IMG/VR virus record: IMGVR_UViG_3300042542_006078
Length of the DNA stretch: 64,000 nucleotides
Direction: 5' to 3' (one strand)
DNA from: a virus
Taxonomy: Duplodnaviria; Caudoviricetes
The translations under genes and the position numbers were made by a program. Shown here one piece after another: positions 980 to 60,875 of the stretch. The notes below the pieces were generated by a model. That model was not told the origin of the DNA. It did not search any database and saw only the letters and a program-made list of their open reading frames with translations. The number at the start of each line of letters is the position of its first letter. Positions within the stretch are counted from its first letter, which is position 1.

Positions 980-1256
980 TGAAATTAAAGAAACAAACGA
1001 AATTGCAGGAATTGAATTCTTCGCCCTTTGGTTTTCTATTTCTTTAGGCATTGCTATATTTTTATTTCCCAATACAATTATTTTTAAGTCAATTATATGG
1101 ACTGGGTGCATAATTGTTTGTTCTTTATATAGTTTTATATCACTTGTTAAGTGGCTGAATTATAAAAAGATAGATTATTCTTTGGTTGCTATGTTGTTGT
1201 GGACATTGAACTTAGTCTTGCAGAGTTTAAGTCTTTTTTTCTTTAGTCCTTTTTGA
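969..1256 (+). CDS. small membrane protein (about 3 TM helices)
   Basis: In-frame ATG 969 overlaps the upstream stop; three hydrophobic stretches. Confidence 0.55.
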   Translation: MLNNEIKETNEIAGIEFFALWFSISLGIAIFLFPNTIIFKSIIWTGCIIVCSLYSFISLVKWLNYKKIDYSLVAMLLWTLNLVLQSLSLFFFSPF

Positions 1257-1321
1257 CTTTACAATCAAAATTTTTCGGTGTAGTTTCCTTTTGTCGATGA
1301 TAGTATCGGCATGAGGAAACT

Positions 1322-4300
1322 ATGATGTCTGATAATATTATTCTGCCTTACAACTCTAAACTTGCCCCCGATGAGCGTAAGCAAAGGCTTCTGAACGACA
1401 CATTCAATTGGTTTGATATGTGTAACGAAGTTTTTTTTGACTTCGTGAAGAATCTGTATGGCGGAGTGAAGCATGAACATTTGATTCTTGTGAATTTTGC
1501 CGAGAAACCCAAGAAGGTTAGCAATAGTAAAAAGCCTAAGAAAAAAGATCAGGAAGTCAACATTCATGTTGAGCCCAATCAAGCCGAATGGGTTGACAAT
1601 GCTTGTGCCACATTCTGGTTTCGATTGCAGGCAAAATCAACAGTACAATTAGACCAATCAGTCCAGACAGCAGAAGAGCGTATTCGACGATTTCGGGATT
1701 ATGCTGGTCACGAGCCATCATCATTTGCCAAATCTTATCTAAATGGTAATTATGATCCAGAGAAGACTGAATGGGTTGATTGCAGGCTTCTTTATGTCAA
1801 TTTTTGCCGTAATCTGAATGTCAACCTTGATGCGGACATTCGCACAATGGTCGAACACAATCTTCTTCCTGTTCTCCCCGGTCAGGATTTCAAAACCAAC
1901 AATGTATTCTCCAACATTTTTGGAGTAGGCAATAAGGAAGACAAGGGTCAAAAAACGAACTGGCTTAACACGGTCGCAGAAGGCCTTCAGTCCAAGGAAA
2001 TTTGGAATTGGGATGAGTATCGTGATTTGATATCAAGATCTACTGGATGCTCTACGGCAGCAGAACTGAGGTCTGAGTCGATTGGCAGGCCAAGCATGCT
2101 TGCAGTTGATTTTGCATCTGAGAAATCAGGCCAAATATCACAGGAATGGCTTGCAGAAAGGGTTAAGTCTTTTAGGGCAGCAGCTTCTCAAAAAAGCAAA
2201 ATCTATGACATGCCTAATCGTCTTGTTTTGAAGGAATACATTGCTTCAAAAATCGGGCCTTTCAAACTTGAAAGGTGGTCTGCTGCTGCCGTTTCTGCTT
2301 ATAAGGATGTCCGCAGCAAGAATAGTATCAATTTGCTTTATTCCAAGGAAAGATTGTGGCGATGCAAGGAAATTGCTCAGATTTTGGTTGATAATCCGCA
2401 GGTTGCTGAAGCCCAACAGATTCTTGTTAATTATTCTTCTGGTGATACCAATTCATTCACAGTTGAAAATCGTCACATGGGCGATTTGACTGTTCTTTTC
2501 AAGATTTGGGAAAAGATGGATATGGATTCTGGCATAGAACAGTATTCCGAAATTTATCGTGATGAATATAGTCGTGATCCAATTACAGAGTTGCTACGCT
2601 ATCTCTACAATCATAGGCATATTTCGGCAAAAACTTTTAGGGCTGCTGCAAGGTTGAATTCTCTTTCGCTGAAGAATGATCGTAAGAAAATTCACCCGAC
2701 TATCAGTGGTAGGACTAGCGTTTCTTTCGGCCATTCAACAATCAAGGGATGCATTACTCCTCCCGATCATATTGTCAAAAATCGAAAAGAGAATGCTGGA
2801 AGCACTGGCATGATCTGGGTTACAATGCAGCTTATCGATAATGGTCGATGGGCGGATCATCATATTCCTTTCCACAATTCTCGCTACTATCGTGATTTTT
2901 ATGCTTATCGTGCCGATCTACCGACTATTTCTGATCCTCGTCGTAAATCTTTTGGACATAGGATCGGCAATAATATTAGCGATACAAGGATGATTAATCA
3001 TGATTGCAAAAAAGCATCAAAAATGTATCTTCGCACAATCCAGAATATGACGCACAATGTGGCATTCGACCAGCAGACTCAGTTCGCTGTTCGTCGTTAT
3101 GCTGATAATAATTTCACGATTACGATCCAAGCTAGGGTTGTAGGGAGGAAATATAAAAAGGAAATATCAGTTGGTGATCGTGTGATGGGTGTTGACCAGA
3201 ATCAGACCACAAGTAACACATATTCTGTTTGGGAAGTAGTTGCTGAAGGGACTGAAAATTCTTACCCATATAAGGGCAATAATTATCGTCTCGTTGAGGA
3301 TGGATTTATTCGCAGCGAATGCAGTGGTCGAGATCAGCTTTCCTATGATGGTCTTGATTTTCAGGACTTTGCTCAATGGCGCAGGGAAAGATACGCATTT
3401 TTATCTTCTGTTGGATGTATTCTCAATGACGAAATCGAGCCTCAAATCCCTGTTAGTGCCGAAAAGGCAAAAAAGAAGAAGAATTTTTCTAAGTGGCGTG
3501 GTTGTTCTCTTTATAGTTGGAACCTCTGTTATGCATATTATCTTAAGGATTTGATGCATGAGAACTTGGCAAATAATCCTGCTGGATTCCGACAGGAAAT
3601 TCTGAATTTTATTCAGGGTTCTAGGGGCGTGAGGCTTTGTTCCCTTAATCACACTAGCTTCCGACTTCTCTCTAAAGCCAAGTCTCTAATTCATTCATTT
3701 TTTGGTCTAAACAATATCAAAGATCCTGAATCTCAAAGGGATTTTGATCCAGAAATTTATGACATAATGGTCAATCTGACACAAAGGAAGACCAACAAGA
3801 GGAAGGAAAAAGCTAATCGCATCACTTCTTCAATTTTGCAAATTGCCAATAGGCTGAATGTCAGTCGTATTGTGATTGAGAACGATTTGCCGAATGCAAG
3901 TTCCAAAAACAAGGCATCAGCCAATCAAAGGGCAACTGATTGGTGTGCTAGAAATGTATCTGAGAAATTAGAATATGCCTGCAAGATGCTTGGTATCAGC
4001 TTATGGCAGATTGATCCAAGGGACACATCGCACCTTGATCCATTTGTTGTGGGCAAGGAGGCTAGATTTATGAAAATAAAGGTTTCTGATATTAACGAAT
4101 ACACTATCAGTAATTTCAAAAAGTGGCATGCAAACATTGCTACAACAAGTACTACAGCACCTCTTTATCATGATGCTTTGAAGGCATTTTCTTCTCATTA
4201 TGGAATTGATTGGGACAATTTGCCAGAAATGAAGTTTTGGGAATTGAAGAATGCCTTGAAAGACCATAAAGAGGTGTTTATCCCAAATCGTGGTGGTCGC

Positions 4301-4423
4301 TGCTATTTATCGACATTGCCGGTGACTTCTACATCTGAAAAGATTGTTTTCAATGGAAGAGAGAGATGGTTGAACGCAAGTGATATTGTGGCAGGAGTTA
4401 ACATTGTGCTAAGATCAGTATGA
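1322..4423 (+). CDS. cas12i: Type V-I CRISPR effector, Cas12i family (1033 aa)
   Basis: RuvC-I VMGVD625QNQTTSN, RuvC-II IVIE853NDL and RuvC-III NASD1021IVAGVNI are all intact. Cas12i-type motifs WADHHIPFHN (H513/H514), DWCARNV and IPNRGGRCYL. Directly upstream of an array whose repeat ends in the Cas12i-type AGAAATCCGTC-N7-GACGG hairpin. Confidence 0.93.
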   Translation: MMSDNIILPYNSKLAPDERKQRLLNDTFNWFDMCNEVFFDFVKNLYGGVKHEHLILVNFAEKPKKVSNSKKPKKKDQEVNIHVEPNQAEWVDNACATFWFRLQAKSTVQLDQSVQTAEERIRRFRDYAGHEPSSFAKSYLNGNYDPEKTEWVDCRLLYVNFCRNLNVNLDADIRTMVEHNLLPVLPGQDFKTNNVFSNIFGVGNKEDKGQKTNWLNTVAEGLQSKEIWNWDEYRDLISRSTGCSTAAELRSESIGRPSMLAVDFASEKSGQISQEWLAERVKSFRAAASQKSKIYDMPNRLVLKEYIASKIGPFKLERWSAAAVSAYKDVRSKNSINLLYSKERLWRCKEIAQILVDNPQVAEAQQILVNYSSGDTNSFTVENRHMGDLTVLFKIWEKMDMDSGIEQYSEIYRDEYSRDPITELLRYLYNHRHISAKTFRAAARLNSLSLKNDRKKIHPTISGRTSVSFGHSTIKGCITPPDHIVKNRKENAGSTGMIWVTMQLIDNGRWADHHIPFHNSRYYRDFYAYRADLPTISDPRRKSFGHRIGNNISDTRMINHDCKKASKMYLRTIQNMTHNVAFDQQTQFAVRRYADNNFTITIQARVVGRKYKKEISVGDRVMGVDQNQTTSNTYSVWEVVAEGTENSYPYKGNNYRLVEDGFIRSECSGRDQLSYDGLDFQDFAQWRRERYAFLSSVGCILNDEIEPQIPVSAEKAKKKKNFSKWRGCSLYSWNLCYAYYLKDLMHENLANNPAGFRQEILNFIQGSRGVRLCSLNHTSFRLLSKAKSLIHSFFGLNNIKDPESQRDFDPEIYDIMVNLTQRKTNKRKEKANRITSSILQIANRLNVSRIVIENDLPNASSKNKASANQRATDWCARNVSEKLEYACKMLGISLWQIDPRDTSHLDPFVVGKEARFMKIKVSDINEYTISNFKKWHANIATTSTTAPLYHDALKAFSSHYGIDWDNLPEMKFWELKNALKDHKEVFIPNRGGRCYLSTLPVTSTSEKIVFNGRERWLNASDIVAGVNIVLRSV

Positions 4424-4601
4424 TGCGAGTGATTGGGTGCCGTAGCAAATTCAGCACCCTCTCGCAATTCGTAAATCTTTAACTTGATTCGTTTTAAGCG
4501 AATCTGCTCTTTGACAAGTAGGTGATTATGGGGATTTGCGGGTGACCCTCTCGCAAAGAATGGCGTAATCTTTTATGCAGTATGGCTTTGTGAGGTGAGC
4601 C
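4424..4601 (+). promoter_or_regulatory. CRISPR leader
   Basis: 178-nt noncoding gap between cas12i and repeat 1. Contains the 12-mer ACCCTCTCGCAA twice (4456-4467, 4545-4556), a GATTCG/CGAATC inverted repeat (4486-4504) and TTGACA at 4511. The degenerate repeats are at the far end of the array. Confidence 0.7.
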
Positions 4602-5293
4602 CTCTCAATGCCTTAGAAATCCGTCCAAAGTTGACGGGGCAGAATTGCTGTGAGTATCCAAAATGGATTTGAGGCTCGCAATGCCTTAGAAATCCGTCCT
4701 TGGTTGACGGTGTCCTTCAGAGCGAGCAAAGTTTCCCAAGAAATACTCTCAATGCCTTAGAAATCCGTCCAAAGTTGACGGCGTGATTCCCTTGTGCAGA
4801 TTGGGCGGCACGGGCACTCTCAATGCCTTAGAAATCCGTCCAAAGTTGACGGCTGATCTCCATTTCTGATTGACGGGCATCAGCGGCACTCGCAATGCCT
4901 TAGAAATCCGTCCAAAGTTGACGGGACAGCGGACCTAAAGCGATGGCGAAAAACTTACAAACTCGCAATGCCTTAGAAATCCGTCCAAAGTTGACGGTCG
5001 TAATAGAGGGGGACTGTTGCCCCGTCCTCAATTGCTCGCAATGCCTTAGAAATCCGTCCTTGGCTGACGGGAAACTGGTTGATATGCTATCGATTCGAGT
5101 GTATTTCTCGCAATGCCTTAGAAATCCGTCCAAAGTTGACGGGTTAGGTGTCATCCCGATCCATCCTACAGGTTGGAGACCTCTCAATGCCTAAGAAATC
5201 CGTCCATAGTTGACGGACGGTACTCTGATAAGGACTGCCAGAACCCAACCGATAGTACTCTCAATGCCTAAGAAATCCGTTCAAAGTTGACGG
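4602..5293 (+). CRISPR. CRISPR array: 10 x 36-nt repeats, 9 spacers of 35-41 nt
   Basis: Consensus CTC(T/G)CAATGCCTTAGAAATCCGTCCAAAGTTGACGG. Repeats start at 4602, 4675, 4746, 4817, 4889, 4962, 5035, 5107, 5181, 5258. The 3' stem is CCGTC/GACGG with a 7-nt loop. Confidence 0.98.
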
Positions 5294-5333
5294 ATAGACG
5301 GAAGAAATGTGGCAAAATTATTTTATTTGCAAT

Positions 5334-5388
5334 TGTAAATAATTTTTTATTACAAGTGTAAATAATTTTTTATTACAAGTGTAAATAA
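5334..5388 (+). repeat. 23-bp tandem repeat (2.4 copies), each unit containing TAAATA
   Basis: TGTAAATAATTTTTTATTACAAG at 5334-5356 and 5357-5379, partial third copy at 5380-5388. Confidence 0.9.
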
Positions 5389-5419
5389 ATCATACATCCC
5401 CTTACGCTTGGAGAAAAAA

Positions 5420-6046
5420 ATGCAGAGTTTTAGTGAATTCTTAAATAGAAAAAAAGGCAACTCTCTTGCGGAATCAATTGTTCGCAGTGGAATTGATTCA
5501 GAATTTTTTTGCGAGACTGTCACGAACGCAGCTAGAAGAGTGAATCCCAGAGATCCTCGTGCTGTTGACAGAATTGTTGAAACTGTTTACAACGAGTTCC
5601 TCGGCAGGATGCTAGGTGGTCTTGGAAATGTTCTGGGAAAGAGTGCTGCTCAATCAACATTCGGCACAAAAACCGCCGCTGCTGCTGGTAGCAAGGCCCT
5701 TCAAGCTGGTCAGTATCTTGGCGGCAAGGCCCTTCAAGCTGGTCAGTATCTTGGCGACAAGGCCGTTCAAGCTGGTCAGGCAATCAAGCAAAGCGCCCAA
5801 AATATTGGCGACAATTACATGCAAGGCGCTCAAGTTGCTCAATTGAATAAGGTCAAAGGTCAAGTTGAAAACATGAAGCAAAACTTGGTACAAATTTTAG
5901 GAAACTATGGTATGACATCAGGATTTACCGACAATATTAACAAACAACTCGACTCACTGTCTAAAAAGCTTCAGCAAATTCTTGATCAAGTTTCCCAAGA
6001 CGCAACTCTCCGTGCTGGTCCCGGTGGAGTTAAGCCTGTAAGGTAA
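5420..6046 (+). CDS. hypothetical protein with capsid-targeting-like N-terminus and internal 11-aa repeats
   Basis: GGAG SD; starts MQSFSEFLNRKK; KALQAGQYLGG repeats. Confidence 0.7.
   Translation: MQSFSEFLNRKKGNSLAESIVRSGIDSEFFCETVTNAARRVNPRDPRAVDRIVETVYNEFLGRMLGGLGNVLGKSAAQSTFGTKTAAAAGSKALQAGQYLGGKALQAGQYLGDKAVQAGQAIKQSAQNIGDNYMQGAQVAQLNKVKGQVENMKQNLVQILGNYGMTSGFTDNINKQLDSLSKKLQQILDQVSQDATLRAGPGGVKPVR
5691..5779 (+). repeat. 33-bp in-frame tandem repeat (about 2.7 copies)
   Basis: GCAAGGCCCTTCAAGCTGGTCAGTATCTTGGCG at 5691-5723 and 5724-5756, degenerate third copy. Confidence 0.9.
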
Positions 6047-6101
6047 TATTCGTTAATTTGACAGAAAAATACATATACATTTATAACAATCTATATTAAT
6101 T

Positions 6102-6137
6102 AGTAAAGCCGTCATCTAGGTGACGGCTTTACTTTTT
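6102..6137 (+). terminator. intrinsic terminator-like hairpin whose core resembles the CRISPR repeat stem
   Basis: Perfect 13-bp stem AGTAAAGCCGTCA/TGACGGCTTTACT, 6-nt loop, then a T run; follows the stop at 6046. Confidence 0.7.
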
Positions 6138-6211
6138 GGCCAATTCGATGTAATTTGCTTTTGTTCATTTTTTAAGAAACAAGTTTCCGATTAGCGGTTA
6201 GGAGCAAATTA

Positions 6212-6616
6212 ATGTTGTCAATCATCAATAGAATTGCCTTTTTTGCTGGTCAAATTAGTTCTCGTTTGGGTTTGGCTTCCTTTCCATCTGCCAATTCACA
6301 AAAATCACCGTTAGAATCTGATAGCAAGATTGATGTTAATATTCCTGATTACGGTAAGGATTCCATCTTAAATCCTGAAGCTCAAATGAATGATATTGCT
6401 TATAAAACTAAAATTCTGGTTGATGAAATCAATGAAGAAAAAAACAAGTTGATGTCACAAGTTTATTGTTCAGATTCTGATAAAATTAGAATTCAAGATT
6501 TGGATCAAAAGGAAAGGGAAGTAATGCAAGAGCGCAGGAGGATCATGGAATTGATCCGAAATGATTTTGGCATGCCTTCTAGTTGTGATTTATCTTCTGT
6601 TAATTGGAGGATTTAG
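6212..6616 (+). CDS. hypothetical protein
   Basis: AGGAG SD; 134-aa ORF, coiled-coil-like C half. Confidence 0.6.
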   Translation: MLSIINRIAFFAGQISSRLGLASFPSANSQKSPLESDSKIDVNIPDYGKDSILNPEAQMNDIAYKTKILVDEINEEKNKLMSQVYCSDSDKIRIQDLDQKEREVMQERRRIMELIRNDFGMPSSCDLSSVNWRI

Positions 6617-6628
6617 AAAAAAAGTTGT

Positions 6629-8092
6629 TTGAAAGATTTAGAAAATAGCAATAAGATGACTGGAAGGGTTATTGGCATGGACATGAAAGAAGTGTCAATG
6701 AAGATGGAGATTACCGGCTACGAACATCTTCATCTTCATTCGGATTTTTCAACCTTGGATGGATTCGGCCAAGTTGAAGAGTATTGTGTCCGTGCGCCGA
6801 AAATTAATCAAAATTTTCTTACTATTTCTGATCACGGGATGATGGGAGCGGTTCCTCGTCAAATTAAAGGATGTGAAAAGATCAATGACAAACTTGGTAA
6901 GGATACTTTGTCCCCAATTTTTGCAGTTGAGTTATATGTAAATCGCTTGCAAACTGAGATGACGGAAGAGAATGAAGGTAAGAAAATATATTCAAGCCTT
7001 ACTGAAATAGAACAAAACGAGTTCAAAAGTAGCAGCCATCTTCTTGCTATAGCTACAAATCAAGAAGGATATAAGAACCTTGTTCGCTTGTCGTCATGGG
7101 GTTGGACAAAAGGATTTTATCGTCGCCCCAGAGTCAATTATGAACAAATTAAAAAATACAAGGAAGGAATTATTTTTACTTCTTGCTGTTATGCAAGCGA
7201 GATAGGAAGAGCATTTGAAAGAGGTGGGGAAGACGAAGCGAACAATATGATTGAAAGATATATTGAAATGTTCGGTAAGGAACATTTTTATCTTGAGATT
7301 ATGCTTCTCGATTTTAAGAAGCAAAAGCCTTATGACAAATTTATTGTTAAGGCAAAAGAGCGATATGGATTGAAAATTATACTTTCAAATGATGTCCATT
7401 ATTGCAACAAAGAGGATAGTCATTATCAAAGATTGATGCTGATGATTCAGACAAATCGTACAATTGCTGAAATTGAAAAGGCATTAAAAGAAGATTCGGA
7501 TCAAGATTTTTTTGAGTTGCAGGATGCCAATCTTTGGATGAAGAGTGAAGAAGAATTAAATGCAAAGTGGTTGTCAGATTATGCGGACACTATTCCTTAT
7601 GAAATATTCTGCGAGGCAAAGAGAACTACTGTTGATATTTGCAGGAAAGCAAAAGGTGTTCAGCTTGATAGGAGCTTAAAGTTGCCTGTCATTCCTGATG
7701 GTGATGATAAGCTTAAAGAGGAAATTATGATTGGTTTCCAAAGTCGTGGATTGCCTAAAAATAGAGAATATTTAGATAGAATAAAAGAAGAATATAGTCT
7801 TATTACGAGGAAGGGATTTACAAGTTACTTTCTAATACAAAAGATGATGACAGATGAGGCTAGAAGGGTTTGTCGTGATATTTTGGGTTTTGGTGATGGT
7901 TCACAGGCTGTTGGTCCGGGTCGTGGGAGTTGTTGTGGTTCCCTTATTTGTTATTGTCTTGGAATCACAAGTGTTGATCCAGTTCGTGAAGGATTGCTTT
8001 TCAGTCGCTTTATGAGTGAAGCTCGTGGAGGCAGAAGTCTTAAATTGGAGTTCAGCAATATTGACCCCTTGCCTCCTGATGAGTTGTCTTAA
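6629..8092 (+). CDS. dnaE: DNA polymerase III alpha subunit, N-terminal fragment (PHP domain plus start of palm); true start probably 6683-6704
   Basis: HLHLHSDFSTLDG, TISDHG, SNDVHY, VGPGRGSCCGSLICYCLGIT, GLLFSRFM; stops before the PDxDxD motif. Confidence 0.9.
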   Translation: MKDLENSNKMTGRVIGMDMKEVSMKMEITGYEHLHLHSDFSTLDGFGQVEEYCVRAPKINQNFLTISDHGMMGAVPRQIKGCEKINDKLGKDTLSPIFAVELYVNRLQTEMTEENEGKKIYSSLTEIEQNEFKSSSHLLAIATNQEGYKNLVRLSSWGWTKGFYRRPRVNYEQIKKYKEGIIFTSCCYASEIGRAFERGGEDEANNMIERYIEMFGKEHFYLEIMLLDFKKQKPYDKFIVKAKERYGLKIILSNDVHYCNKEDSHYQRLMLMIQTNRTIAEIEKALKEDSDQDFFELQDANLWMKSEEELNAKWLSDYADTIPYEIFCEAKRTTVDICRKAKGVQLDRSLKLPVIPDGDDKLKEEIMIGFQSRGLPKNREYLDRIKEEYSLITRKGFTSYFLIQKMMTDEARRVCRDILGFGDGSQAVGPGRGSCCGSLICYCLGITSVDPVREGLLFSRFMSEARGGRSLKLEFSNIDPLPPDELS

Positions 8093-10591: not shown

Positions 10592-10671
10592 GTGATTTTT
10601 CTCCGTCTGAATACCGTCATCTTATGATGGGTTTATAAAACTATATAATGTTTAATTTTCAAAAATTTAAC

Positions 10672-12341: not shown

Positions 12342-13322
12342 ATGAGGCAAGTGGACATTCCTATGTACAAACCAAATAGTCAAGCTTCTTCTTCTCTTAA
12401 GAAATTGTTTGAATATAGATCAGATGGAGATTTTGATGCTTTTGATGATGAAAAAATATCATATTATAATCAATGGTCTACTTCTGATAGCATTCATTTT
12501 TTGCCAACTGCTACAACTGTAAAGCAATTGGTGCCCGGAACATATGATATAAAAAGCAGTCAGGCAAATGGCATTTACTTTGAGAAAATACCAGTAGTAA
12601 CTCATGGTATTATTCGATTTCCAGAAACAAACTCAGAAAAAATTGTGTTGGAGATTCAAAAGTTTTGGGAAAGGGAAAAGCTATTCCGTGATTATAGGCT
12701 CACCTATAAAAGGGGAGTGATGCTTTATGGGCCTCCCGGTTCTGGCAAGACTTCAGCCATACAACTTGTTATGCGTGATGTCATCGAGAGAGGTGGAGTT
12801 GTAATTAATTTCTTGAGTCCCGGTCTTTTTCTGGCTGGGATTAGGAAGTTCAGGGAAATACAGCCAGAAACTCCAATTGTAGTCTTGATGGAGGACATAG
12901 ATTCGATTATAGAGATAAACTCCGAGAGTGAAGTTTTGAATGTTTTGGACGGTGTGAATCAAATAGAAAAGGCAGTATTTCTTGCGACAACTAATTATCC
13001 TGAGAGATTGGGAGATAGGATAATTAATCGTCCAAGTCGATTTGACAAAAGATTCAAAATAGGACATCCCAACCCCGAGAGCCGACATCTTTATCTTGAG
13101 TTCATCATGGGAGGATCTGAAAAAGTAAAGGAAATGCAAATTAATTTGGAAAAATGGGTTGAGGATACGGAAGATTTTTCTCTTGCTCATCTCAAGGAAT
13201 TGTTTGTTGCTGTCGTGATTCTTGGCGATCATTATGATGATGCTTTACAAACATTAATGTTGATGCGTGAAGAGAATTTGTCGTCTAGTGATGACAACAC
13301 AAGAAAGAAAATGGGGTTTTGA
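12342..13322 (+). CDS. AAA+ ATPase
   Basis: Walker A GPPGSGKT, Walker B VLMEDID, LATTNYPERL, RPSRFD. Confidence 0.9.
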   Translation: MRQVDIPMYKPNSQASSSLKKLFEYRSDGDFDAFDDEKISYYNQWSTSDSIHFLPTATTVKQLVPGTYDIKSSQANGIYFEKIPVVTHGIIRFPETNSEKIVLEIQKFWEREKLFRDYRLTYKRGVMLYGPPGSGKTSAIQLVMRDVIERGGVVINFLSPGLFLAGIRKFREIQPETPIVVLMEDIDSIIEINSESEVLNVLDGVNQIEKAVFLATTNYPERLGDRIINRPSRFDKRFKIGHPNPESRHLYLEFIMGGSEKVKEMQINLEKWVEDTEDFSLAHLKELFVAVVILGDHYDDALQTLMLMREENLSSSDDNTRKKMGF

Positions 13323-13852: not shown

Positions 13853-13930
13853 TTTTTGAAAGACTTGAAAAGAGTGGTCTTTTAATGTAAACTGACCAGA
13901 GATTCCATGCTTCATCTCTGGCAGATAAAA

Positions 13931-16660
13931 ATGATTAATGATAAGGCAAGGTTTGTTGATCTTCTTGATTCTGCCATGAAGTCTAGAGGACTTTCTGGCA
14001 AAAAGTTATATGAAAAAAGGCTTAAGTGGGAAACAGAAGAAATCCTTGCAAAGGATAAGCAAAGTTATTTTCTTGATCTTTTTGACAGGAAGATTAAGTA
14101 TCCATCCAATCAAAATAATTTACTGGTTTGTTGGCTTCTAGGCATAGTTCAAGACTTTGATATTAATGATGAGCCAGCGAATCATTTTACGGGTGATTTG
14201 CCTGATGTGGACATTGATTATATTCCCATGGTCAGGGATTATTTGAAAAATGAATGGGCACCTAAAACATTTGGCGAAGAATATGTTTGCAACATTGGCA
14301 ACTATACCACATTCGGGATTAAGTCGGCTTTAATTGACATGGCAAGGGTTCATGGTGAGAGTCGTGAAGAGGTTATGGCTGTCACTAAAAACCTTGACGC
14401 TAAGGACGACGAAGGAAATCCAATCACATGGGATGCCGCCATAAGACTCGATCCTGATTTCAAATCTTATGTTGAAAAGTATCCTTCTGTGGCAGAGGCA
14501 ACTAAAAAACTAATCAATCGTAATCGTGGAATGGGAGTTCATGCAGGAGGCTTGATTATATCAAGAAATCCAATTCACGATCTTGTTCCTCTAGTGAAAA
14601 GAAAGGATAACCCGCAAGCAAGTGCTTGGGTAGAGGGTCTTCATGGACAAGACTTGCAACCTGTGGGTTTGGTTAAATTTGATTTATTAGTTATTTCAAA
14701 CCTTTTACAAATTGCTCGTTGTTGTGAGATGGTAAAGAGCAGGCGTGGAATAACCAGTATTTGTGGAAGGCCGGGAGAGCCTGATTGGTCTGATGTCGAT
14801 TCTTGGAGAAATGACGCAGATTCTTTGGCCATGGCCAATTCCGCTGATCTCAAGTGCATATTCCAATTTGATTCGGAAGGTATTCGTGGCCTTGTGAGAG
14901 CAGGAGGAGTAGATCGATTTGAGGATTTGGTGGTTTACTCAGCGATTTTTCGTCCCGGCTGTTTGAAAGTTTTAATGGACAAGCGTTATGTTGAGCGCAA
15001 GAAAGGTCGTGAAAAATTTGAATTGCATCCACTAATCAAGCCAATCCTTGAAAAAACTTATGGAGTCATGGTTTATCAAGAACAAATCATGAAAATATTG
15101 CATGTCGTTGGTAATATTCCTCTTAAAGATTGTGAGGCTGTAAGAAAGGCGATTAGTAAGAAGAAAATTGAATCAATTGCAAAATATAAAGACATGTTCA
15201 TTGAAAATGGAATGAAAAATTTAAGTTACACCAAAGAACAAATGGAGGAATTTTTTGCACAGATACTTTCTTTCAGCGAATACGGATTTAATTTATCGCA
15301 TGCCGTGGCTTACAATTACATAAGCATGTATCTTTTGTATCTCAAATCTCATTATCCTCCTGAATTTTATGCAAGCATGCTGTCATGTGAGACAGTGAGT
15401 GATAAAATAAAAGATTTCAAAATGGAGGCAAAGATACATGGCGTTAACATGCACAGGCTTGATATCAATAAGTCAAAAGTGAATTTTGAGTTAGTTGGCG
15501 ACATGATTTATTATGGTTTTTCAAATGTAAAGGGAATTGGAGAAGGTCCGGCTCAAAAGATAGTTTCCAATCAACCTTATTCATCTTTTGAAGATTTTCT
15601 TTATAGATGCAGCACGGACTCTTCAATACTTAAACCAATTTTAGGACTGCGTTGTTTTAGGGATCGTGATCCTATTACATTGTGGAAGTTTGCTGAACAT
15701 TTCAAGGATTGCTTGAAGAAAAATGAAGACAGGAGAAAAAGGTTTGAGGCTATTTTGCAGAAGTACGAGGAAGATTTGAAGATTTTGTTGCCAGAATGTG
15801 GTTTTAAGTTATCTGATCTTAAAGGTGAATCTCCATTTGATGGAAGAGAATATCAAGAAAAATATGATATTAATGAAGAAATTGAGGTTTTGAAAGAATA
15901 TGAATGTGATCCTAGTGAGGGTGTTGGCCGAATTGAAATGGAAACTATGATAGTAGATGGTACTGATGTGACAATTGAAAGAGAAGTGATGAGGCACTAT
16001 AAAAAAATTGTTACAAAGAGGCCTTGGAATAGATGGAATGAGTTGAAGAAGTTGTGGGTCAAGAGACTTAGGTCAATTCAGAAATTTTCCGAAACTGAAA
16101 TGAGATCTTTGCCGAAGCTAATTGGATTCGACGCAGACAAATATGATGTTCCTAAAGAACTTGAGAAGGATTTTAGGAATCCTATTCTTTGTGAGGAAAA
16201 GTATTATGGTTTTGCTTGGATACATGAGCTTGAAAGAAGTCCTGATTATAAAGGCAATCTGACTTTTGATGCTATTCGTAGCAATCATGATGGATCAAGT
16301 GGTCCTGTTGAGTTGAAAATTAAGAAAGTTGAAGAAAAGACTAGCAAGAAGGGATCAAGTTATTGGCAGATTGCAGCGGAAGATGTGACGGGCCAAGAAA
16401 ATAAAATAAATATTTGGGCTGATGATTGGAATAGGTGGAGCAAGGAATTTGTCAAAGGTAACTTACTTAGGGTAAGGCTTCAGCCTCCAAATGGGGGATT
16501 TCCAACATTTTTGTTGGAATCAAATCAGGGTAGTGGAAGATTCCGATTCCAGAAAAAATATCATGATAAGGAAGACGATCCTAGAGTCATTATTATGAGG
16601 TTTGGTAAGGCTGAAGAAGAAAAGCATATGACTGATGAGGAAGTGTTGAATTTGCTTTAA
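13931..16660 (+). CDS. dnaE: DNA polymerase III alpha subunit, C-terminal fragment (palm, fingers, HhH, OB)
   Basis: DLPDVDIDY, GVHAGGLII, VKFDLLVISNL, KTYGVMVYQEQIM, FSEYGFNLSHAVAY, YGFSNVKGIGE, C-terminal OB-like fold. Confidence 0.92.
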   Translation: MINDKARFVDLLDSAMKSRGLSGKKLYEKRLKWETEEILAKDKQSYFLDLFDRKIKYPSNQNNLLVCWLLGIVQDFDINDEPANHFTGDLPDVDIDYIPMVRDYLKNEWAPKTFGEEYVCNIGNYTTFGIKSALIDMARVHGESREEVMAVTKNLDAKDDEGNPITWDAAIRLDPDFKSYVEKYPSVAEATKKLINRNRGMGVHAGGLIISRNPIHDLVPLVKRKDNPQASAWVEGLHGQDLQPVGLVKFDLLVISNLLQIARCCEMVKSRRGITSICGRPGEPDWSDVDSWRNDADSLAMANSADLKCIFQFDSEGIRGLVRAGGVDRFEDLVVYSAIFRPGCLKVLMDKRYVERKKGREKFELHPLIKPILEKTYGVMVYQEQIMKILHVVGNIPLKDCEAVRKAISKKKIESIAKYKDMFIENGMKNLSYTKEQMEEFFAQILSFSEYGFNLSHAVAYNYISMYLLYLKSHYPPEFYASMLSCETVSDKIKDFKMEAKIHGVNMHRLDINKSKVNFELVGDMIYYGFSNVKGIGEGPAQKIVSNQPYSSFEDFLYRCSTDSSILKPILGLRCFRDRDPITLWKFAEHFKDCLKKNEDRRKRFEAILQKYEEDLKILLPECGFKLSDLKGESPFDGREYQEKYDINEEIEVLKEYECDPSEGVGRIEMETMIVDGTDVTIEREVMRHYKKIVTKRPWNRWNELKKLWVKRLRSIQKFSETEMRSLPKLIGFDADKYDVPKELEKDFRNPILCEEKYYGFAWIHELERSPDYKGNLTFDAIRSNHDGSSGPVELKIKKVEEKTSKKGSSYWQIAAEDVTGQENKINIWADDWNRWSKEFVKGNLLRVRLQPPNGGFPTFLLESNQGSGRFRFQKKYHDKEDDPRVIIMRFGKAEEEKHMTDEEVLNLL

Positions 16661-22988: not shown

Positions 22989-23276
22989 ATGGCTTGTAAA
23001 GTTGAATTGCGTGATCTTCCTTCTAATCCGAGTTGGTACGAGAAGGAGATTGCATTCAAAAAAATGTTCACTGCATTTAAGAAACAGGTTGCAGAAGCTG
23101 GAATTCTGCATGACTACAAGGCTAGGGAATTTTATGAAACTCCCGGCGAAGAGAGAAGAAGAAAGAAAAGAGAGGCCGAAAATGTGCGCCTAAAGGAAAA
23201 GTTGCGTGAGAACTTTCCTGAGAGACGCAAGCCCAAGAAGTCCGACAATAAGAAAGCAAAAACTAAAGGTGAATAA
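22989..23276 (+). CDS. rpsU: ribosomal protein bS21 homolog
   Basis: FKKMFTAFKKQVAEAGILHDYKAREFYETPGEERRRKKREA matches the bS21 signature. Confidence 0.85.
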   Translation: MACKVELRDLPSNPSWYEKEIAFKKMFTAFKKQVAEAGILHDYKAREFYETPGEERRRKKREAENVRLKEKLRENFPERRKPKKSDNKKAKTKGE

Positions 23277-23539
23277 TGACTGCTAAAAAAGGAACCATTA
23301 TGAGCTTGAGTGTCGATCTCGACATTCAGGAAAAAATGAAGGCTGTTGCTAAAAAAAGGAATATTAGTGTTTCTAAATTAATTCGTGATTTGGTTGAAAA
23401 GAATTTGCCAAATGTCGATGAAGATGTTGATGTCGTTGTATTCAAGGTTCCTGTTGAAATGAGAGTTTCTTCTGAAAGTCTAAAGCAATGGCTATCAGTT
23501 CGTGTTGATGCTGTAGTTAAGGCGCTTACCACTCCATAA
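23276..23539 (+). CDS. ribbon-helix-helix (CopG-like) DNA-binding protein
   Basis: TIMSLSV.LDIQEKMKAVAKKRNISVSKLIRDLVEK. Confidence 0.75.
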   Translation: MTAKKGTIMSLSVDLDIQEKMKAVAKKRNISVSKLIRDLVEKNLPNVDEDVDVVVFKVPVEMRVSSESLKQWLSVRVDAVVKALTTP

Positions 23540-23561
23540 TAAGAGGCAGTTAAATTCCGTC

Positions 23562-24074
23562 ATGACTCAATCAAGCATGAAATTTTCCGACCCGTTAAAA
23601 ATAGTCGCAGTCGCAGATATTCCAAAGGCCATGGATGTGCCTTTGGATAATCTAATGGCGATTTTTCGATTGTGTAATAAAATGGAAAAAATCTGCGACG
23701 AAAATAATGGCATAGGACTGTCCGCAAACCAATTGGGCATTCCTTGGAAATTATTTATTGTAAAAAGAAACAGGACTTTTGAATATTATTTGAATTGCGA
23801 TTATATCGGAGAAGGCGAAAAGATGAGATCAGTTGAAGGATGCCTTTCTCTAAGAAGCGAATCTGGTGAATTTAGAAGATTTGAAGTTGAGCGTTTTTCC
23901 AAAATAAAGCTTAATGGCAAACAGTTGATTATATCTGGAATGCCTTCTTTGGTTTTGCACGATGTCAGCAGGCAAGAAAAAGATTTGTTTGCAGTTGTTT
24001 TTCAGCATGAAATCGATCATGGTTCTGATAAACTAATTTCGGATATTGGGAAAGAAGTTGAAATTTCTGATTGA
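23562..24074 (+). CDS. def: peptide deformylase
   Basis: All three PDF motifs present: GIGLSANQLG, EGCLS, QHEIDH. Confidence 0.92.
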   Translation: MTQSSMKFSDPLKIVAVADIPKAMDVPLDNLMAIFRLCNKMEKICDENNGIGLSANQLGIPWKLFIVKRNRTFEYYLNCDYIGEGEKMRSVEGCLSLRSESGEFRRFEVERFSKIKLNGKQLIISGMPSLVLHDVSRQEKDLFAVVFQHEIDHGSDKLISDIGKEVEISD

Positions 24075-24094
24075 AATCTCGGAGTGAATGAGCG

Positions 24095-24373
24095 ATGTTG
24101 AGTTTGAAGCAGCTAAAGGATGTTTGTCTTGTTGACGATGTAACACATCGTCGCTGCCGCTATTTGTCACAGGACGACAACGATAGAAACAAATTTTATT
24201 GCATGAAAATTTCTGCCAAAGCCGAAAAGATTGATGAAGAAATTGACTCGTATGTGCATTCAATGCACATGAAAGGCAAGAATATTCATGCCGACAATCT
24301 GCCTTTGGGAGATAATTGTGGTGGCTATCCATTGCTCAGGCATATCGAGCAAGGTTACGATCAAAAAAATTAA
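24095..24373 (+). CDS. hypothetical Cys-containing protein
   Basis: 92-aa ORF with CRY, YCMK and NCGGY. Confidence 0.55.
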   Translation: MLSLKQLKDVCLVDDVTHRRCRYLSQDDNDRNKFYCMKISAKAEKIDEEIDSYVHSMHMKGKNIHADNLPLGDNCGGYPLLRHIEQGYDQKN

Positions 24374-24861
24374 TTTGATTGAAGTCTTTGCTTAATTAAT
24401 TCATAGATGTCTTTTGCTCTATTCTCTTCGGCAGCAATAGACAATATTTCGGTTTCAAATTTCGGGCTGTTAAAACGGGCAATTTCTCTTGCCATGAGTT
24501 CGCCAGTCTTTTCGCTCTTAATTGCCCTGTCACGATAATAGAATAAAAACATACCGACGACAACTATTGCGAATACAAAAATTAATGCACCATCTCCTTG
24601 AATTATTTGAATTCCTGTATTTTCATTGCGTGAAATTGCAGAGTTGATGTTCACCAAGCCGCTTTGAATTTCTTTGAGTTTACTGTTATTGACTTCCATT
24701 TCTTGACGCAATTTACCAATTTCAGCCATTATACCATTTTGATTTGTTCGTATATCCTCTATTTTACCGCTTTTATTTTCAATCTTTGGATTATTCCGTG
24801 GATTGAAGTTTGCACATCCTGACAAAAATATCAGAGCGATCAAAAAAATGAATTTTTTCAT
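24370..24861 (-). CDS. lipoprotein with coiled coil and C-terminal TM helix (unimolecular spanin-like)
   Basis: Lipobox LSG-C16, heptad region, TM ALIFVFAIVVVGMFLFYY, cytoplasmic tail. Confidence 0.55.
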   Translation of the reverse strand: MKKFIFLIALIFLSGCANFNPRNNPKIENKSGKIEDIRTNQNGIMAEIGKLRQEMEVNNSKLKEIQSGLVNINSAISRNENTGIQIIQGDGALIFVFAIVVVGMFLFYYRDRAIKSEKTGELMAREIARFNSPKFETEILSIAAEENRAKDIYELIKQRLQSN

Positions 24862-24976
24862 GTTAATTCTCCATTTTATGTATCGTCATGTAAGGGTTTT
24901 TATGATATTTGGATGGTAGTTGAAAAGATTTTTTACTTTGGCACGATAACGGGGTACTTGTCATTTTGGATGGGTA

Positions 24977-24997
24977 AAGCAATCCGTCACAAGATGG
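24977..24997 (+). promoter_or_regulatory. degenerate CRISPR-repeat-like hairpin in 5' UTR
   Basis: AAGCAAT-CCGTC-ACAA-GATGG, ends 16 nt before ATG 25014. Confidence 0.4.
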
Positions 24998-25013
24998 AAG
25001 TATAGAGGTAATC

Positions 25014-25508
25014 ATGAGCAAGGATGTTCTTATGTTTCCTTTTAATTCACGCAATGAGTCATCAAAAGTTGTCCACAGCTTGCTTGATGGGCTTGTGGAT
25101 TATTCTGAGTCATCAAAAGATGATGATCTTGTCAACAATCAAATTGTCGAAGAATTTAAGCAGAATGCAAAAAATTTGGCTATAAAGTATGCCTCTGAGT
25201 ATTTCAAAGGCAAGAGTCTTTATGTTGGCGGCAAAATTACGGAACAGATTTTGATTAACGATAAAATAATTTCCACCATACTGAACTCAGATATGTTGAG
25301 CAGCATCGACAAAGCGCATGGTGGCATAAATGGTAACGAGGACTTGGTTTTCAAGACAAGTCTTGATGGTGTTGATGGTGGGGCAAAAATGATCATTGAT
25401 ATTTTGAATGATATTTCACTATCCCCTTTTCGCATACCCAAGGAATTCGCTGGTGGCATTTTGTTGTTGCATTTAGAATTAGTTGAGGGGGTTGTTTTTG
25501 AATCGTGA
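25014..25508 (+). CDS. hypothetical protein
   Basis: GAGG SD; 164 aa. Confidence 0.65.
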   Translation: MSKDVLMFPFNSRNESSKVVHSLLDGLVDYSESSKDDDLVNNQIVEEFKQNAKNLAIKYASEYFKGKSLYVGGKITEQILINDKIISTILNSDMLSSIDKAHGGINGNEDLVFKTSLDGVDGGAKMIIDILNDISLSPFRIPKEFAGGILLLHLELVEGVVFES

Positions 25509-25812
25509 CTTATTGCTTCTCAGCAGAGAATTTGACAATTATCAGCTTCCAAAGGAAAAGAAATACCTCCTGAATTATTTTGATTCGGTTATTCAGGAGG
25601 CATTTCTCAAATATTATTTTGTATTTCATGATTTTAAGAATTTCACGGATCATACTGGTATTTCTGTTCAGCCAAAGTGGTTGAAGAATTTGCATGAAAA
25701 ATTGCAAATTATTGAAAAAGCCCACAAAGAAGCAAAATTAAATTTTGATATGGCTGGTGTTTTAGAAATAGAAAATGGAAATTATAAATTTAACAAGCAT
25801 CGTAGTAAATAA
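25483..25812 (+). CDS. hypothetical protein (start uncertain)
   Basis: Fills the gap in an operon-like run; codon style typical of the window. Confidence 0.5.
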   Translation: MRGLFLNRDLLLLSREFDNYQLPKEKKYLLNYFDSVIQEAFLKYYFVFHDFKNFTDHTGISVQPKWLKNLHEKLQIIEKAHKEAKLNFDMAGVLEIENGNYKFNKHRSK

Positions 25813-25815
25813 TTT

Positions 25816-26046
25816 ATGGCACTTATATCATTCAAAGACTGGCGTAATAAATTTGACGAGGCTAGTCCCACAACTCGTTTGAGGGATGAGATCATGAGGG
25901 GCAATCACCCCATGTCAGCCGGTGTTGCGATGTCAAGATCAACTCCACATCCTGAATTTGTTAAGAAGGCAATTAAGGAATTTGGCACACCAGATCATCC
26001 TAAGAAAAAACGAAAAAGTAAGCGCAAAAAGAAAAAAGGTCAATAA
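25816..26046 (+). CDS. small basic protein with capsid-targeting-like N-terminus
   Basis: MALISFKDWRNKFDEA; K/R-rich tail; TAAATA 4 nt upstream. Confidence 0.65.
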   Translation: MALISFKDWRNKFDEASPTTRLRDEIMRGNHPMSAGVAMSRSTPHPEFVKKAIKEFGTPDHPKKKRKSKRKKKKGQ

Positions 26047-26456
26047 TGCTGTCTTTTCACGAATGGAGAGCAAAAAGGCTTGATGAAGCTGCCAAAAAAG
26101 GTAAGCCAAAAAAGGCTCCTGTGGCAAGGCATGACATTGAAACATGGCTTAAGGAAATAGAAAGTCTTAAGAAAGACCTAGAAGAACTTAAAAAAGCCAA
26201 GAAAATAGCCGCTCAAAAACTCGCTAGACTGGCAGATATTGAAAAGCTTGATTCTAAGAAACCCGATTCTAAGAAACCCGATTCTAAGAAACCCGATTCT
26301 AAGAAACCCGATTCTAAGAAACCTGATTCTAAGAAACCTGATTCTAAGAAACCTGATTCTAAGAAACCTCTTAAAAAATATGTTTCTAAGAAGATTAAGA
26401 AAAAAGGCGACACAAGATTAAAAAATCCGTCAGAAATTGACAAAGAGAAAAAATGA
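26046..26456 (+). CDS. Lys-rich protein with (DSKKP)8 repeat and capsid-targeting-like N-terminus
   Basis: MLSFHEWRAKRLDEA; TAATG stop/start coupling. Confidence 0.7.
   Translation: MLSFHEWRAKRLDEAAKKGKPKKAPVARHDIETWLKEIESLKKDLEELKKAKKIAAQKLARLADIEKLDSKKPDSKKPDSKKPDSKKPDSKKPDSKKPDSKKPDSKKPLKKYVSKKIKKKGDTRLKNPSEIDKEKK
26250..26369 (+). repeat. 15-bp tandem repeat x8
   Basis: GATTCTAAGAAACC(C/T): four CCC copies, then four CCT copies. Confidence 0.95.
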
Positions 26457-26545
26457 TGATTATTGCAAATGCGTATAATGTCTAAGATAACCAACGCTTG
26501 TTAGAAAGAAGATACTCTCTAAGAGCGAAAATAAGGGGCTATCTT

Positions 26546-27007
26546 ATGTCAGAAGAATCTAGAATATCATCACAAGAAGATATAATTAACGATGTTGAAA
26601 AACAGAGTTTGAAAAATGCTCGGGAAGTTCATGGTAGTATTTCCATAATTCAAGCAGAACAAGAAACATATGTGATTGCAGTCGCAATTTGCTTAGATAA
26701 AAGCAAGAATTTTATCAATAAAATTAATTGCAAGCGTGGAGTACCCATTCAGGGTTATGTCTACGATGCCCAATCAGACAGTTACTTTTTAGAATGTAGT
26801 GATTTCTTGCATATTGGAATTATACCTGCATCATTTGTTGCAACATTCAAAAACTATAGTGGCTGGAAAATGTTTGTCCCAATGCCAGAAAGTGTAATTA
26901 AAAGGCACCTGAATGATTCTCAAAAGAAAGATTTGAAACAATTTAAGAATCATTTCAAGGCTGATGAATTCATTATAAATTTTATTCAAATGGTAAATCC
27001 AAATTAA
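26546..27007 (+). CDS. hypothetical protein
   Basis: AAGGGG SD-like sequence before ATG 26546. Confidence 0.6.
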   Translation: MSEESRISSQEDIINDVEKQSLKNAREVHGSISIIQAEQETYVIAVAICLDKSKNFINKINCKRGVPIQGYVYDAQSDSYFLECSDFLHIGIIPASFVATFKNYSGWKMFVPMPESVIKRHLNDSQKKDLKQFKNHFKADEFIINFIQMVNPN

Positions 27008-27031
27008 TTCCTCAATAAAATTCCAAAAAAT

Positions 27032-27481
27032 ATGAATTGCTTCCAGAAAAAAAATCTGCAAGAGAAAATAGAAAACCATGATTATTGGATGACCATGGCT
27101 TTTATGTTTGCTGTAAAATCTAAAACCAACCGTGCTTGCGTATTAGTCAACAATGCTAATAGATTGATATCTTATGGCATTGAAAATCCCCCTGAGTTTG
27201 CGGAATCAACCAAAATATTGATTCCAGCAGAAATACAAGCGATTATTGGATGCAAGAACGAAATCATAAATGCTAATCTTTATATAACCAGCCCTCCAAC
27301 TAGGGATTCTGCAATGACCATAATTGCATGTACGGGAATAAAATCTGTTTATTACTACCCAAAAGAAAACATAGATTTGGATGCAAAAAATAAAATACAA
27401 TGCGTCTTTGTAGATGTAAATGAATTGGAAACTAATTTGAATTGGACAAGAGATTATTTTGATTCCTTAGAACATAAATAA
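27032..27481 (+). CDS. dCMP-deaminase-fold protein lacking Zn ligands
   Basis: DYWMTMAFMFAVKS..ACVLVN..RLISYG..PAEIQAII...NLYITSPPTRDSAMTII..GIKSVYY; HAE is PAE and PCxxC is PTRDS. Confidence 0.65.
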   Translation: MNCFQKKNLQEKIENHDYWMTMAFMFAVKSKTNRACVLVNNANRLISYGIENPPEFAESTKILIPAEIQAIIGCKNEIINANLYITSPPTRDSAMTIIACTGIKSVYYYPKENIDLDAKNKIQCVFVDVNELETNLNWTRDYFDSLEHK

Positions 27482-27485
27482 TTCC

Positions 27486-36628: not shown

Positions 36629-36670
36629 AAATATCATTTGTGGGAGCGCAATTAAATTGTGTTGAATATT

Positions 36671-53663: not shown

Positions 53664-53683
53664 TGAGAAGTCGAAAGACAATT

Positions 53684-53757
53684 GCCCCCGTAACTCAGGT
53701 GAATAGAGTAGCGTTTTTCTAAAGCGCAAGTCGTTGGTTTGAATCCAACCGGGGGTA
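53684..53757 (+). tRNA. tRNA-Arg, anticodon TCT (reads AGA); CCA not encoded
   Basis: Acceptor GCCCCCG/CGGGGGT, D-stem ACTC/GAGT, anticodon stem GCGTT/AGCGC with loop TT-TCT-AA, T-arm GTTGG-TTTGAAT-CCAAC. Confidence 0.92.
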
Positions 53758-53811
53758 TTTTTATTTTTTATCATATGATTTTTTCCATTTTCTTATTGCA
53801 TTGGTGCCATT

Positions 53812-60853: not shown

Positions 60854-60875
60854 ACATTCCGTCAACTCCTGACGG
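60852..60875 (+). promoter_or_regulatory. CRISPR-repeat-like hairpin in 5' UTR
   Basis: GAACATT-CCGTC-AACTCCT-GACGG: exact stem and loop length; followed by SD GGAG (60878) and ATG 60889. Confidence 0.7.

Follow-up and report, generated by a model that had tools for sequence, protein, structure and literature searches.

The window, by which we mean the whole 64,000-nt stretch of DNA analysed here, carries a cas12i gene followed by a CRISPR leader and array. The features referred to below are as follows.

1313-1318, + strand: Shine-Dalgarno-like GAGGAA, read from the sequence, a few bases 5' of the cas12i ATG
1322-4423, + strand: cas12i gene, 1033 aa, with RuvC triad D625/E853/D1021 and predicted processing residues K20/H513/H514
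4424-4601, + strand: CRISPR leader, 178 nt, with two partial copies of the repeat 5' end (CCTCTCGCAA) near 4458 and 4546
4505-4523, + strand: leader block TGCTCTTTGACAAGTAGGT, the same in three lineages, a candidate array promoter or leader signal
4602-5293, + strand: CRISPR array of ten 36-nt repeats and nine spacers of 35-41 nt
4602, 4675, 4746, 4817, 4889, 4962, 5035, 5107, 5181 and 5258, + strand: repeat starts, 36 nt each
4638-4674, + strand: spacer 1, leader-adjacent, with a near-match next to 5'-TTC in lake metagenome contigs
28358-28380, + strand: solitary 23-nt Cas12i handle with zero mismatches, 3 nt 5' of the infC (IF3) start codon
36659-38242: virion structural protein (PHROG 1645, E 1e-102)

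Comparison of the window protein with the PDB by phmmer revealed matches to Cas12i2 (E 1e-96 over residues 6-1030) and Cas12i1 (E 9e-53), and an all-against-library HMMER search defined a small Cas12i family of 41 representatives at E<1e-30. The AlphaFold2 model of the protein (pLDDT 86.8, pTM 0.77) found its best Foldseek matches in 6LTU (TM 0.81/0.81) and Cas12i1 (TM 0.81/0.78); Cas12b, the next family, reached a TM of only 0.63/0.48. Residues D625, E853 and D1021 are the counterparts of the Cas12i2 RuvC triad D599/E833/D1019, with E853 aligned to the position altered in 6LTR, the crystal entry of the E833A mutant of Cas12i2 (PMC7567891), and H513 and H514 lie in a WADHHIPF motif that begins at residue 510. 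All five of these residues were invariant in an alignment of ten sequences that included Cas12i1, in which K20 was at least 90% conserved; in an alignment of 38 sequences H513, H514 and D1021 were invariant and D625 and E853 were at least 90% conserved. K20, H513 and H514 align with K18, H485 and H486, the residues that process pre-crRNA in Cas12i2 (PMC7567891), and by this residue set a pre-crRNA self-processing site is predicted to be present in the window protein. The motifs also support a nuclease that is, to judge from its sequence, catalytically intact. Peptides of the protein and the repeat handle did not occur in the literature text searched, and the peptides were not found in the supplements of PMC7162821 that were examined. 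The first-pass annotation had proposed a type V-I locus with this triad, an HH pair in WADHHIPF, and a leader and ten-repeat array directly after cas12i; homology and fold bear out the type, the residues were found in those motifs, and the repeats at 4602-5293 do follow cas12i after the 178-nt leader.

The 3' end of every repeat is a 23-nt handle of the form AGAAAUCCGUC-N7-GACGG with a U directly before it, which folds as a hairpin with 5 bp in the stem and 7 nt in the loop; variation among the repeats is confined to the loop, and the last two repeats of the array are degenerate. The window contains 11 matches to this handle pattern, compared with 0.00 expected by chance. The last 23 nt of the repeat start with AGA after a U, which is the Cas12i2 cut-site pattern, and A(-23), G(-22) and A(-21) are essential in the Cas12i2 repeat (PMC7567891). 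Leader alignment revealed that the block TGCTCTTTGACAAGTAGGT is letter-for-letter the same in the window and in two related loci (L009 and L014), even though identity among their Cas12i proteins is just 42-77%. Promoter prediction placed no sigma-70 consensus promoter at the block, and no sigma-70-type promoter stands out. In an anti-repeat search within 9 kb the best score was 13, the 95th percentile of shuffles being 14, absence being unprovable from sequence, and a tracrRNA check gave no Rfam match.

Pfam calls from about -8.7 kb to +66 kb of the window list no Cas1, Cas2 or Cas4, and none was present in the related phage records G001-G003 (474 kb). Subtype V-I loci are generally found without other cas genes (PMC10691335), and nearly all huge-phage CRISPR systems, phage cas12i among them, have no cas1, cas2 or cas4 (PMC7162821). 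The missing adaptation genes are thus the normal state of the subtype and no peculiarity of this locus.

The longest contig with the exact window Cas12i protein was 434,573 bp, and the genome that hosts the locus is phage-like, approximately 434 kb and 36% GC, from lake metagenomes. The window contains the virion structural protein listed above and a phage-type DNA polymerase (PHROG 405, E 2e-103); no capsid, terminase or portal gene was recognized in it. Relatives lie on IMG/VR viral contigs of 168 and 225 kb, estimated to be 39% and 52% complete, for which CheckV size estimates are near 430 kb. Searches of 185,579 prokaryote species genomes, of INPHARED phages and of PLSDB plasmids yielded no Cas12i relative, and a related-locus search of IMG/VR with the Cas12i protein alone found none. 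By the virion gene, a contig of more than 200 kb and the viral classification of its relatives, the carrier is a huge phage. Many of the genes are host-like (such as PrkA, SpoVR, DnaJ, IF3 and S21), which could point to a bacterial chromosome or prophage region with adaptation genes elsewhere in the same cell; however, huge phages typically carry such genes (PMC7162821), and this origin is highly improbable given the virion gene, the viral relatives with their size estimates and the lack of Cas12i relatives in the prokaryote genomes. The first-pass annotation was correct in finding no cas1, cas2 or cas4 in 64 kb and in calling the locus phage-borne, but the novelty that it implied for the missing adaptation genes was overstated. 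Its description of phage-type genes on both sides applies only loosely to the closest neighbours (SpoVR, ORFans and a split gene for DNA polymerase III alpha); the window does contain the PHROG 1645 and PHROG 405 genes.

The locus is present in 19 lake runs from approximately 15 studies between 2017 and 2024; none of these runs is on record as RNA, which says nothing about expression. The first-pass annotation inferred that the nuclease relies on host or distant adaptation machinery, which may be so; what was observed is that the window array was identical in four other assemblies (five in all), with no sign of ongoing acquisition. In a 2017 contig repeat 1 is joined to repeat 8 and 505 nt are skipped, either as a contracted array or as a collapse through a shared 32 nt, and we counted this junction neither for nor against contraction. 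Logan contigs of four runs leave much of the array interior without cover, as would be expected when a 36-nt repeat is assembled with k=31, and this gap was treated as uninformative. The relatives carry other spacers than the window, with arrays of different spacers kept in three lineages, so array content does change over longer periods. Comparison with a 77% identical relative gave a cas12i dN/dS of 0.12; the gene is under purifying selection within a fast-diverging cassette. The frozen array, its two degenerate terminal repeats and the truncated units in the arrays of relatives might indicate an inactive relic with an unused nuclease. Against such decay stand the dN/dS value, the retention of every catalytic and predicted processing residue, the conserved leader block and the recurrence of the locus across runs and years, and we assign a relic very little probability. 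In a phylogenetic tree that contained no Cas12i2 sequence, the window protein belonged to a distinct clade that comprised eight representatives, had good support and left Cas12i1 outside, and this clade has so far been found only on huge-phage contigs.

Among the nine spacers, only spacer 1 was matched. Two contigs, 394 and 425 nt long and from runs X4 and X2, share the 34 nt of positions 4641-4674 with two other letters, followed outward by three further bases with one mismatch and TTC before them, and the sequence around the match is unlike the array on both sides in both contigs. The match was found in lake runs of 2020 and 2024. This TTC precedes the sole protospacer-like match (n = 1), for which the chance of TT is 1/16. 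Of the six reading frames of the matched sequence one is open, and its readable differences fall on third codon positions. Three of 37 positions are mismatched, including seed position 3, at which a mismatch stops Cas12i2 from cleaving (PMC7567891); for this reason the two contigs might represent escapers, or relatives of the sequence that is really targeted. The only hint on the owner was a weak tblastn match of the matched sequence to an unannotated phage ORF (E 2e-4). The match offers a kind of observation that is rare for a phage-borne V-I system, a natural candidate protospacer with a PAM.

Further searches for targets gave no additional matches. The first 24 nt of spacers 1-3 had no match in IMG/VR, the whole array had only chance-level matches in INPHARED (E 9), and the exact flank of the spacer-1 match was absent from IMG/VR and JGI metagenomes. 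Spacer-1 patterns degenerate at third codon positions were found neither in IMG/VR nor in the 185,579 species genomes. The spacers of the window, L009 and L014 revealed no cross-targeting or self-targeting when compared with the window, related loci and G001-G003. A metagenome match to the degenerate spacer-1 pattern (L013) was rejected as chance because the likeness stops at the pattern end, and the likeness of spacers 3 and 4 (TRF) was not above shuffles.

Spacer GC was 0.488 compared with 0.362 for the window, a value reached by none of 10,000 random window samples. Spacers so far above the phage GC, together with the report that huge-phage spacers match host transcription and translation genes (PMC7162821), could mean that the array is aimed at the bacterial host chromosome, for takeover or repression, and not at rival phages. 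We consider this quite unlikely, as the degenerate spacer-1 pattern lacks a match in the species genomes and the weak protein hints for its target point to phage ORFs. The GC-rich spacers and the spacer-1 match in the coding sequence of another lake element make it most likely that the system serves, in co-infection, to attack rival phages or mobile DNA of other kinds.

The handle at 28358-28380 is the only exact match to the handle pattern outside the array in the window, and the gene that it precedes was assigned to IF3 by Pfam; it may be a second RNA ligand of Cas12i. Allowing at most one mismatch, six CCGTC-N7-GACGG hairpins lie outside the array, all on the + strand, compared with a chance expectation of 0.16 per window, and solitary copies also occur in the related phage records. 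In a sister phage (L010) an intact cas12i occupies the same position, with a handle-type hairpin 14 nt before its own ATG and no adjacent array. Together, the solitary handles and the array-less sister hint that Cas12i may have a role beyond guide-directed DNA cutting. It could be mainly or additionally an RNA-binding regulator or processor of phage messages that acts through these hairpins, with the array secondary. We hold this to be unlikely: pure RNA binding would not need the conserved full RuvC triad, arrays with differing spacers are maintained in three lineages, spacer 1 has a PAM-flanked match, and the L010 contig ends 3 kb past cas12i, so an array could lie elsewhere. We likewise give only a modest chance to a dual use in which Cas12i would combine DNA interference with processing or regulation of its own phage's messages via leader handles (infC and others). 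The dual-use reading takes in the cas12i of the sister phage that lost its adjacent array. If true, it would mean that a phage has recruited a CRISPR effector to act in the expression of its genes. The features from which something new might emerge are the fast-diverging cassette, the sister allele with no adjacent array and the solitary handles.

Taken together, we consider it very likely that this is a type V-I locus, cas12i plus array with no other cas gene, of a huge uncultured lake phage of approximately 434 kb, and that it is used in interference. The observations behind this reading are family membership, intact motifs, repeat anatomy, context, a static array, purifying selection and one PAM-flanked protospacer-like match; by analogy we infer expression, processing, cleavage and target identity. 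By analogy with Cas12i2, the array would be transcribed rightward from the conserved leader and Cas12i would require no tracrRNA. Cas12i would bind the 3' hairpin of the repeat, and K20/H513/H514 would cut the pre-crRNA between U(-24) and A(-23). The 23-nt handle and spacer would then guide the protein to DNA with a 5'-TTN PAM, where the single RuvC site D625/E853/D1021 would cleave. The array would be inherited as a fixed guide set, with rare new spacers gained through adaptation proteins in trans or by recombination. The locus supports a picture of giant phages with fixed guide sets against competitors. It also adds a divergent natural Cas12i ortholog, 1033 aa long and about 27% identical to Cas12i2, together with the native repeat, the leader and nine guides, and so has some value for nuclease mining.

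Among the closest known systems is Cas12i2 (6LTU/6LTP; Yan et al. 2019; Huang et al. 2020, PMC7567891), which the window locus resembles in full-length alignment, fold, RuvC D/E/D residues and K/H/H site, in a 36-nt repeat ending in the AGAAAUCCGUC-N7-GACGG handle, and in comprising effector and array only; no tracrRNA was detected for the window locus in the 9 kb searched. The TTC next to its one protospacer-like match is also the PAM used in the Cas12i2 structure. In contrast, the window protein is about 25-30% identical to Cas12i2 and 21 aa shorter, and the hairpin loop has another sequence. Cas12i1 (6W5C, 7D3J), which mainly nicks the non-target strand (PMC10734277), belongs to the same family and shares the fold and catalytic residues, but its identity to the window protein is 22-27%. 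CasPhi (Cas12j) is likewise a phage-borne single-protein type V system, but of a different family, with a weak fold match to the window Cas12i (TM 0.15). In huge phages CasPhi is a protein of approximately 750 aa that processes its own crRNA and is accompanied by a small array and no adaptation genes. Al-Shayeb et al. (2020, PMC7162821) reported a cas12i carried by a lake phage with 36% GC, and LP_PHAGE_36_12 (307,553 bp, Lac Pavin) is an entry in their supplementary table. In both cases a huge freshwater phage with 36% GC carries cas12i together with a compact array and no Cas1, Cas2 or Cas4; the window's contig is longer (434 kb), and the two phages are possibly of the same lineage. Thus, a phage-borne Cas12i locus that carries no adaptation genes is an already described kind.

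The nuclease gene, its leader and the CRISPR array lie in immediate succession:

1322-4423, + strand: cas12i open reading frame, 1033 aa
directly after the cas12i stop codon, + strand: leader, 178 nt
4602-5293: CRISPR array, ten 36-nt repeats and nine spacers of 35-41 nt

The homology search proposed in the first-pass annotation was performed against PDB sequences and identified the protein as Cas12i, with residues 6-1030 aligning with Cas12i2 (E 1e-96) and residues 96-1030 with Cas12i1 (E 9e-53). No Pfam model for the protein was found, NCBIfam returned just a sub-threshold TnpB-like RuvC segment, and cluster members at JGI are labeled 'IS605 OrfB family transposase'. An AlphaFold2 model built from 38 family members (pLDDT 86.8, pTM 0.77) gave TM-scores of 0.81/0.81 against the Cas12i2 ternary complex 6LTU and 0.81/0.78 against Cas12i1, compared with just 0.63/0.48 for Cas12b, the next-best family. 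A quick tree grouped the protein, with good support, in a clade of eight representatives, with Cas12i1 outside. The RuvC triad D625 (in GVDQNQ), E853 (in VIENDL) and D1021 (in NASDIVAG), and H513 and H514 in WADHHIPF (residue 510 on), are where the first-pass annotation had read them. All five residues were invariant across ten sequences, Cas12i1 among them, and across 38 representatives each was either invariant or conserved to at least 90%; E853 occupies the aligned position of E833A, mutated in the catalytically dead crystal form 6LTR (PMC7567891).

The leader and ten-repeat array follow the gene directly, as first read, and substitutions occur in the last two repeats, at the leader-distal end where substituted repeats are expected. 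The 3' end of the repeat is predicted to form a hairpin (5-bp stem, 7-nt loop), and differences among repeat variants are confined to this loop. A search for the handle (the 23-nt 3' part of the repeat, expected to be retained in the crRNA) as AGAAATCCGTC-N7-GACGG revealed 11 matches in the window against a chance expectation of 0.00. Cas12i2 cleaves its own pre-crRNA between U(-24) and A(-23), requires A(-23), G(-22) and A(-21) for this cut, and uses K18, H485 and H486 (PMC7567891). These residues align with K20, H513 and H514 of our protein, and, as at the Cas12i2 cut site, the 3'-terminal 23 nt start with AGA and are preceded by U in every repeat. No anti-repeat above chance was detected within 9 kb of the locus and an Rfam search gave no match, which, at the level of sequence, would fit a system without tracrRNA. 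Three lineages, namely the window, its 77% identical relative L009 and the 42% relatives, share an identical leader block, TGCTCTTTGACAAGTAGGT (4505-4523). Two partial copies of the repeat 5' end (CCTCTCGCAA) at 4458-4468 and 4546-4556, both also retained in the L009 leader and in that of L014 (a 42% relative), could represent degenerated repeats or act as a leader signal.

The claim that the locus is phage-borne was borne out by a PHROG virion structural protein at 36659-38242 (E 1e-102), a PHROG phage DNA polymerase, and relatives on IMG/VR contigs. The exact Cas12i is present in NCBI, JGI, ENA and Logan, on contigs of up to 434,573 bp. The IMG/VR contigs carrying the 42% relatives measure 168 and 225 kb; with CheckV completeness of 39% and 52%, they correspond to a genome size of about 430 kb. 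Pfam calls precomputed for contigs spanning the window plus 8.7 kb upstream comprised PrkA, DUF444, SpoVR, a split DNA polymerase III alpha, ribosomal protein S21, peptide deformylase, IF3, DnaJ, PhoH, dUTPase, many glycosyl- and methyltransferases and an HNH protein, the remainder being mostly ORFans. No Cas1, Cas2 or Cas4 was found among these calls, in agreement with the first-pass annotation, nor in the 168- and 225-kb relatives' records or an 80-kb record of the same phage. Spacer gain through host or distant adaptation machinery, as first suggested, is a reasonable guess and no more. No Cas12i relative was found among 185,579 prokaryote species genomes (using two peptide patterns of limited sensitivity), INPHARED phages or PLSDB plasmids. 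The locus was present in 19 lake or freshwater DNA runs from approximately 15 studies (2017-2024). Window GC is 0.36, and the one tRNA, tRNA-Arg(TCT), lies at 53683-53758; S21, peptide deformylase, IF3 and DnaJ form a translation-related cluster at 22989-31969. Such a cluster and a tRNA are typical of huge phages. The DNA polymerase III alpha halves (+ strand; PHP/N-terminal gene 6629-8092, the rest 13907-16660) are about 5.8 kb apart, separated by six genes, three on the opposite strand. LAGLIDADG inteins occur in SpoVR (966 versus 531 aa) and PhoH (591 aa) of relatives (L010:5852-8752, L007:6000-7775); the corresponding window genes have none.

We also examined array stability. The array was identical to the letter in four other assemblies of the locus, including that of a clearly different strain (L002) with one 23-nt and two 33-nt tandem units fewer nearby; thus, ongoing spacer uptake was not seen. 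L009 carries 14 handles, unrelated spacers and some truncated units, and the two 42% relatives (L014 and L015) carry 13 repeats with other spacers, the same in both samples, so spacer turnover does occur over a longer time scale. A cas12i dN/dS of 0.12 against L009 revealed purifying selection. Compared with the sister phage contig L010, the flanks share 80-85% DNA identity, whereas Cas12i shares just 45% amino acid identity and its DNA is unalignable. This fast-diverging cassette (approximately 980-6340) comprises cas12i, the array and the next ORF within a conserved backbone. A lysine- and glutamate-rich 69-aa ORF just upstream (770-979, + strand) is 87% identical in L010 and 69% in L009, much better conserved than Cas12i. 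Three tandem 23-nt units (TTTTATTACAAGTGTAAATAA-like) at 5316-5388 separate the array from the next gene (5408-6046), which contains three to four in-frame 33-nt repeats at 5682-5784; the 23-nt-like unit is single-copy in L010.

Just upstream of infC (IF3; start codon at 28384), at a distance of 3 nt, is a perfect solitary handle (28358-28380, + strand) whose loop differs from that of the array repeats. Apart from this copy and the array, the window contains five further CCGTC-N7-GACGG hairpins, of which two are perfect and three deviate at one position, against a whole-window shuffle expectation of 0.16:

10614-10630, + strand: hairpin
28966-28982, + strand: hairpin
33959-33975, + strand: hairpin
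60859-60875, + strand: hairpin
61833-61849, + strand: hairpin

Solitary copies also occur in related phage records. In L010, cas12i is intact at the same position, and a terminator and then the next gene come immediately after it; no array was found within the 3 kb left on the contig, and a repeat-like hairpin lies 14 nt before the cas12i ATG (L010:9970-9986 and 13081-13204). The same-strand solitary copies and this array-less allele would suit an additional, RNA-directed function of Cas12i, which we consider unlikely.

Guide-directed interference from a fixed array is the best reading of the locus. Spacer GC is 0.488 compared with 0.362 for the window, a value reached by none of 10,000 random window samples, so the spacers derive from other DNA. 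When Logan contigs of four lake runs were mapped onto the locus, two of the runs (2020 and 2024, separate studies) yielded small contigs that matched the leader-proximal spacer 1 at 4641-4674, apart from two other letters, and diverged from the array on both sides. Immediately 5' of the match the contigs read GGA instead of the GGC of the spacer, and this triplet is preceded by TTC, which served as the PAM in the Cas12i2 structure (one match). The readable 94 nt are open in just one of six frames, with the GGC/GGA difference and both between-run differences at third codon positions, which points to coding sequence of a co-occurring element. A mismatch at seed position 3, as in these contigs, would block Cas12i2 (PMC7567891), so they may represent escape variants, or relatives of the sequence originally targeted. 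The target peptide weakly matched an ORF of an unannotated phage by tblastn (E 2e-4), the C-terminus of which weakly resembles tail proteins; collection scans for the target sequence gave nothing or chance matches only. If expressed, the nine guides would be released as crRNAs through self-processing by Cas12i, which would then cut foreign DNA in a crRNA-guided, TTN-dependent and RuvC-mediated manner, most likely that of competing phages or other mobile elements sharing the host cell.

Subtype V-I is associated with arrays and not with other cas genes (PMC10691335), almost all CRISPR systems of huge phages are without Cas1, Cas2 and Cas4, and a 2020 study already demonstrated Cas12i encoded by phages (PMC7162821); this kind of locus was thus known beforehand. 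The supplementary table of the latter study lists LP_PHAGE_36_12, a 307,553-bp Lac Pavin phage, with cas12i (PMC7162821); '36' in its name appears to denote 36% GC, and it may be of the same lineage as our phage. The published Cas12i size range of 1033-1093 aa (PMC9122993) has the length of our protein as its lower bound, circumstantial evidence that the original set may already contain an ortholog of 1033 aa. Taken together, the locus belongs to a known kind, of which it is a new example or at least one that lacks an explicit description.
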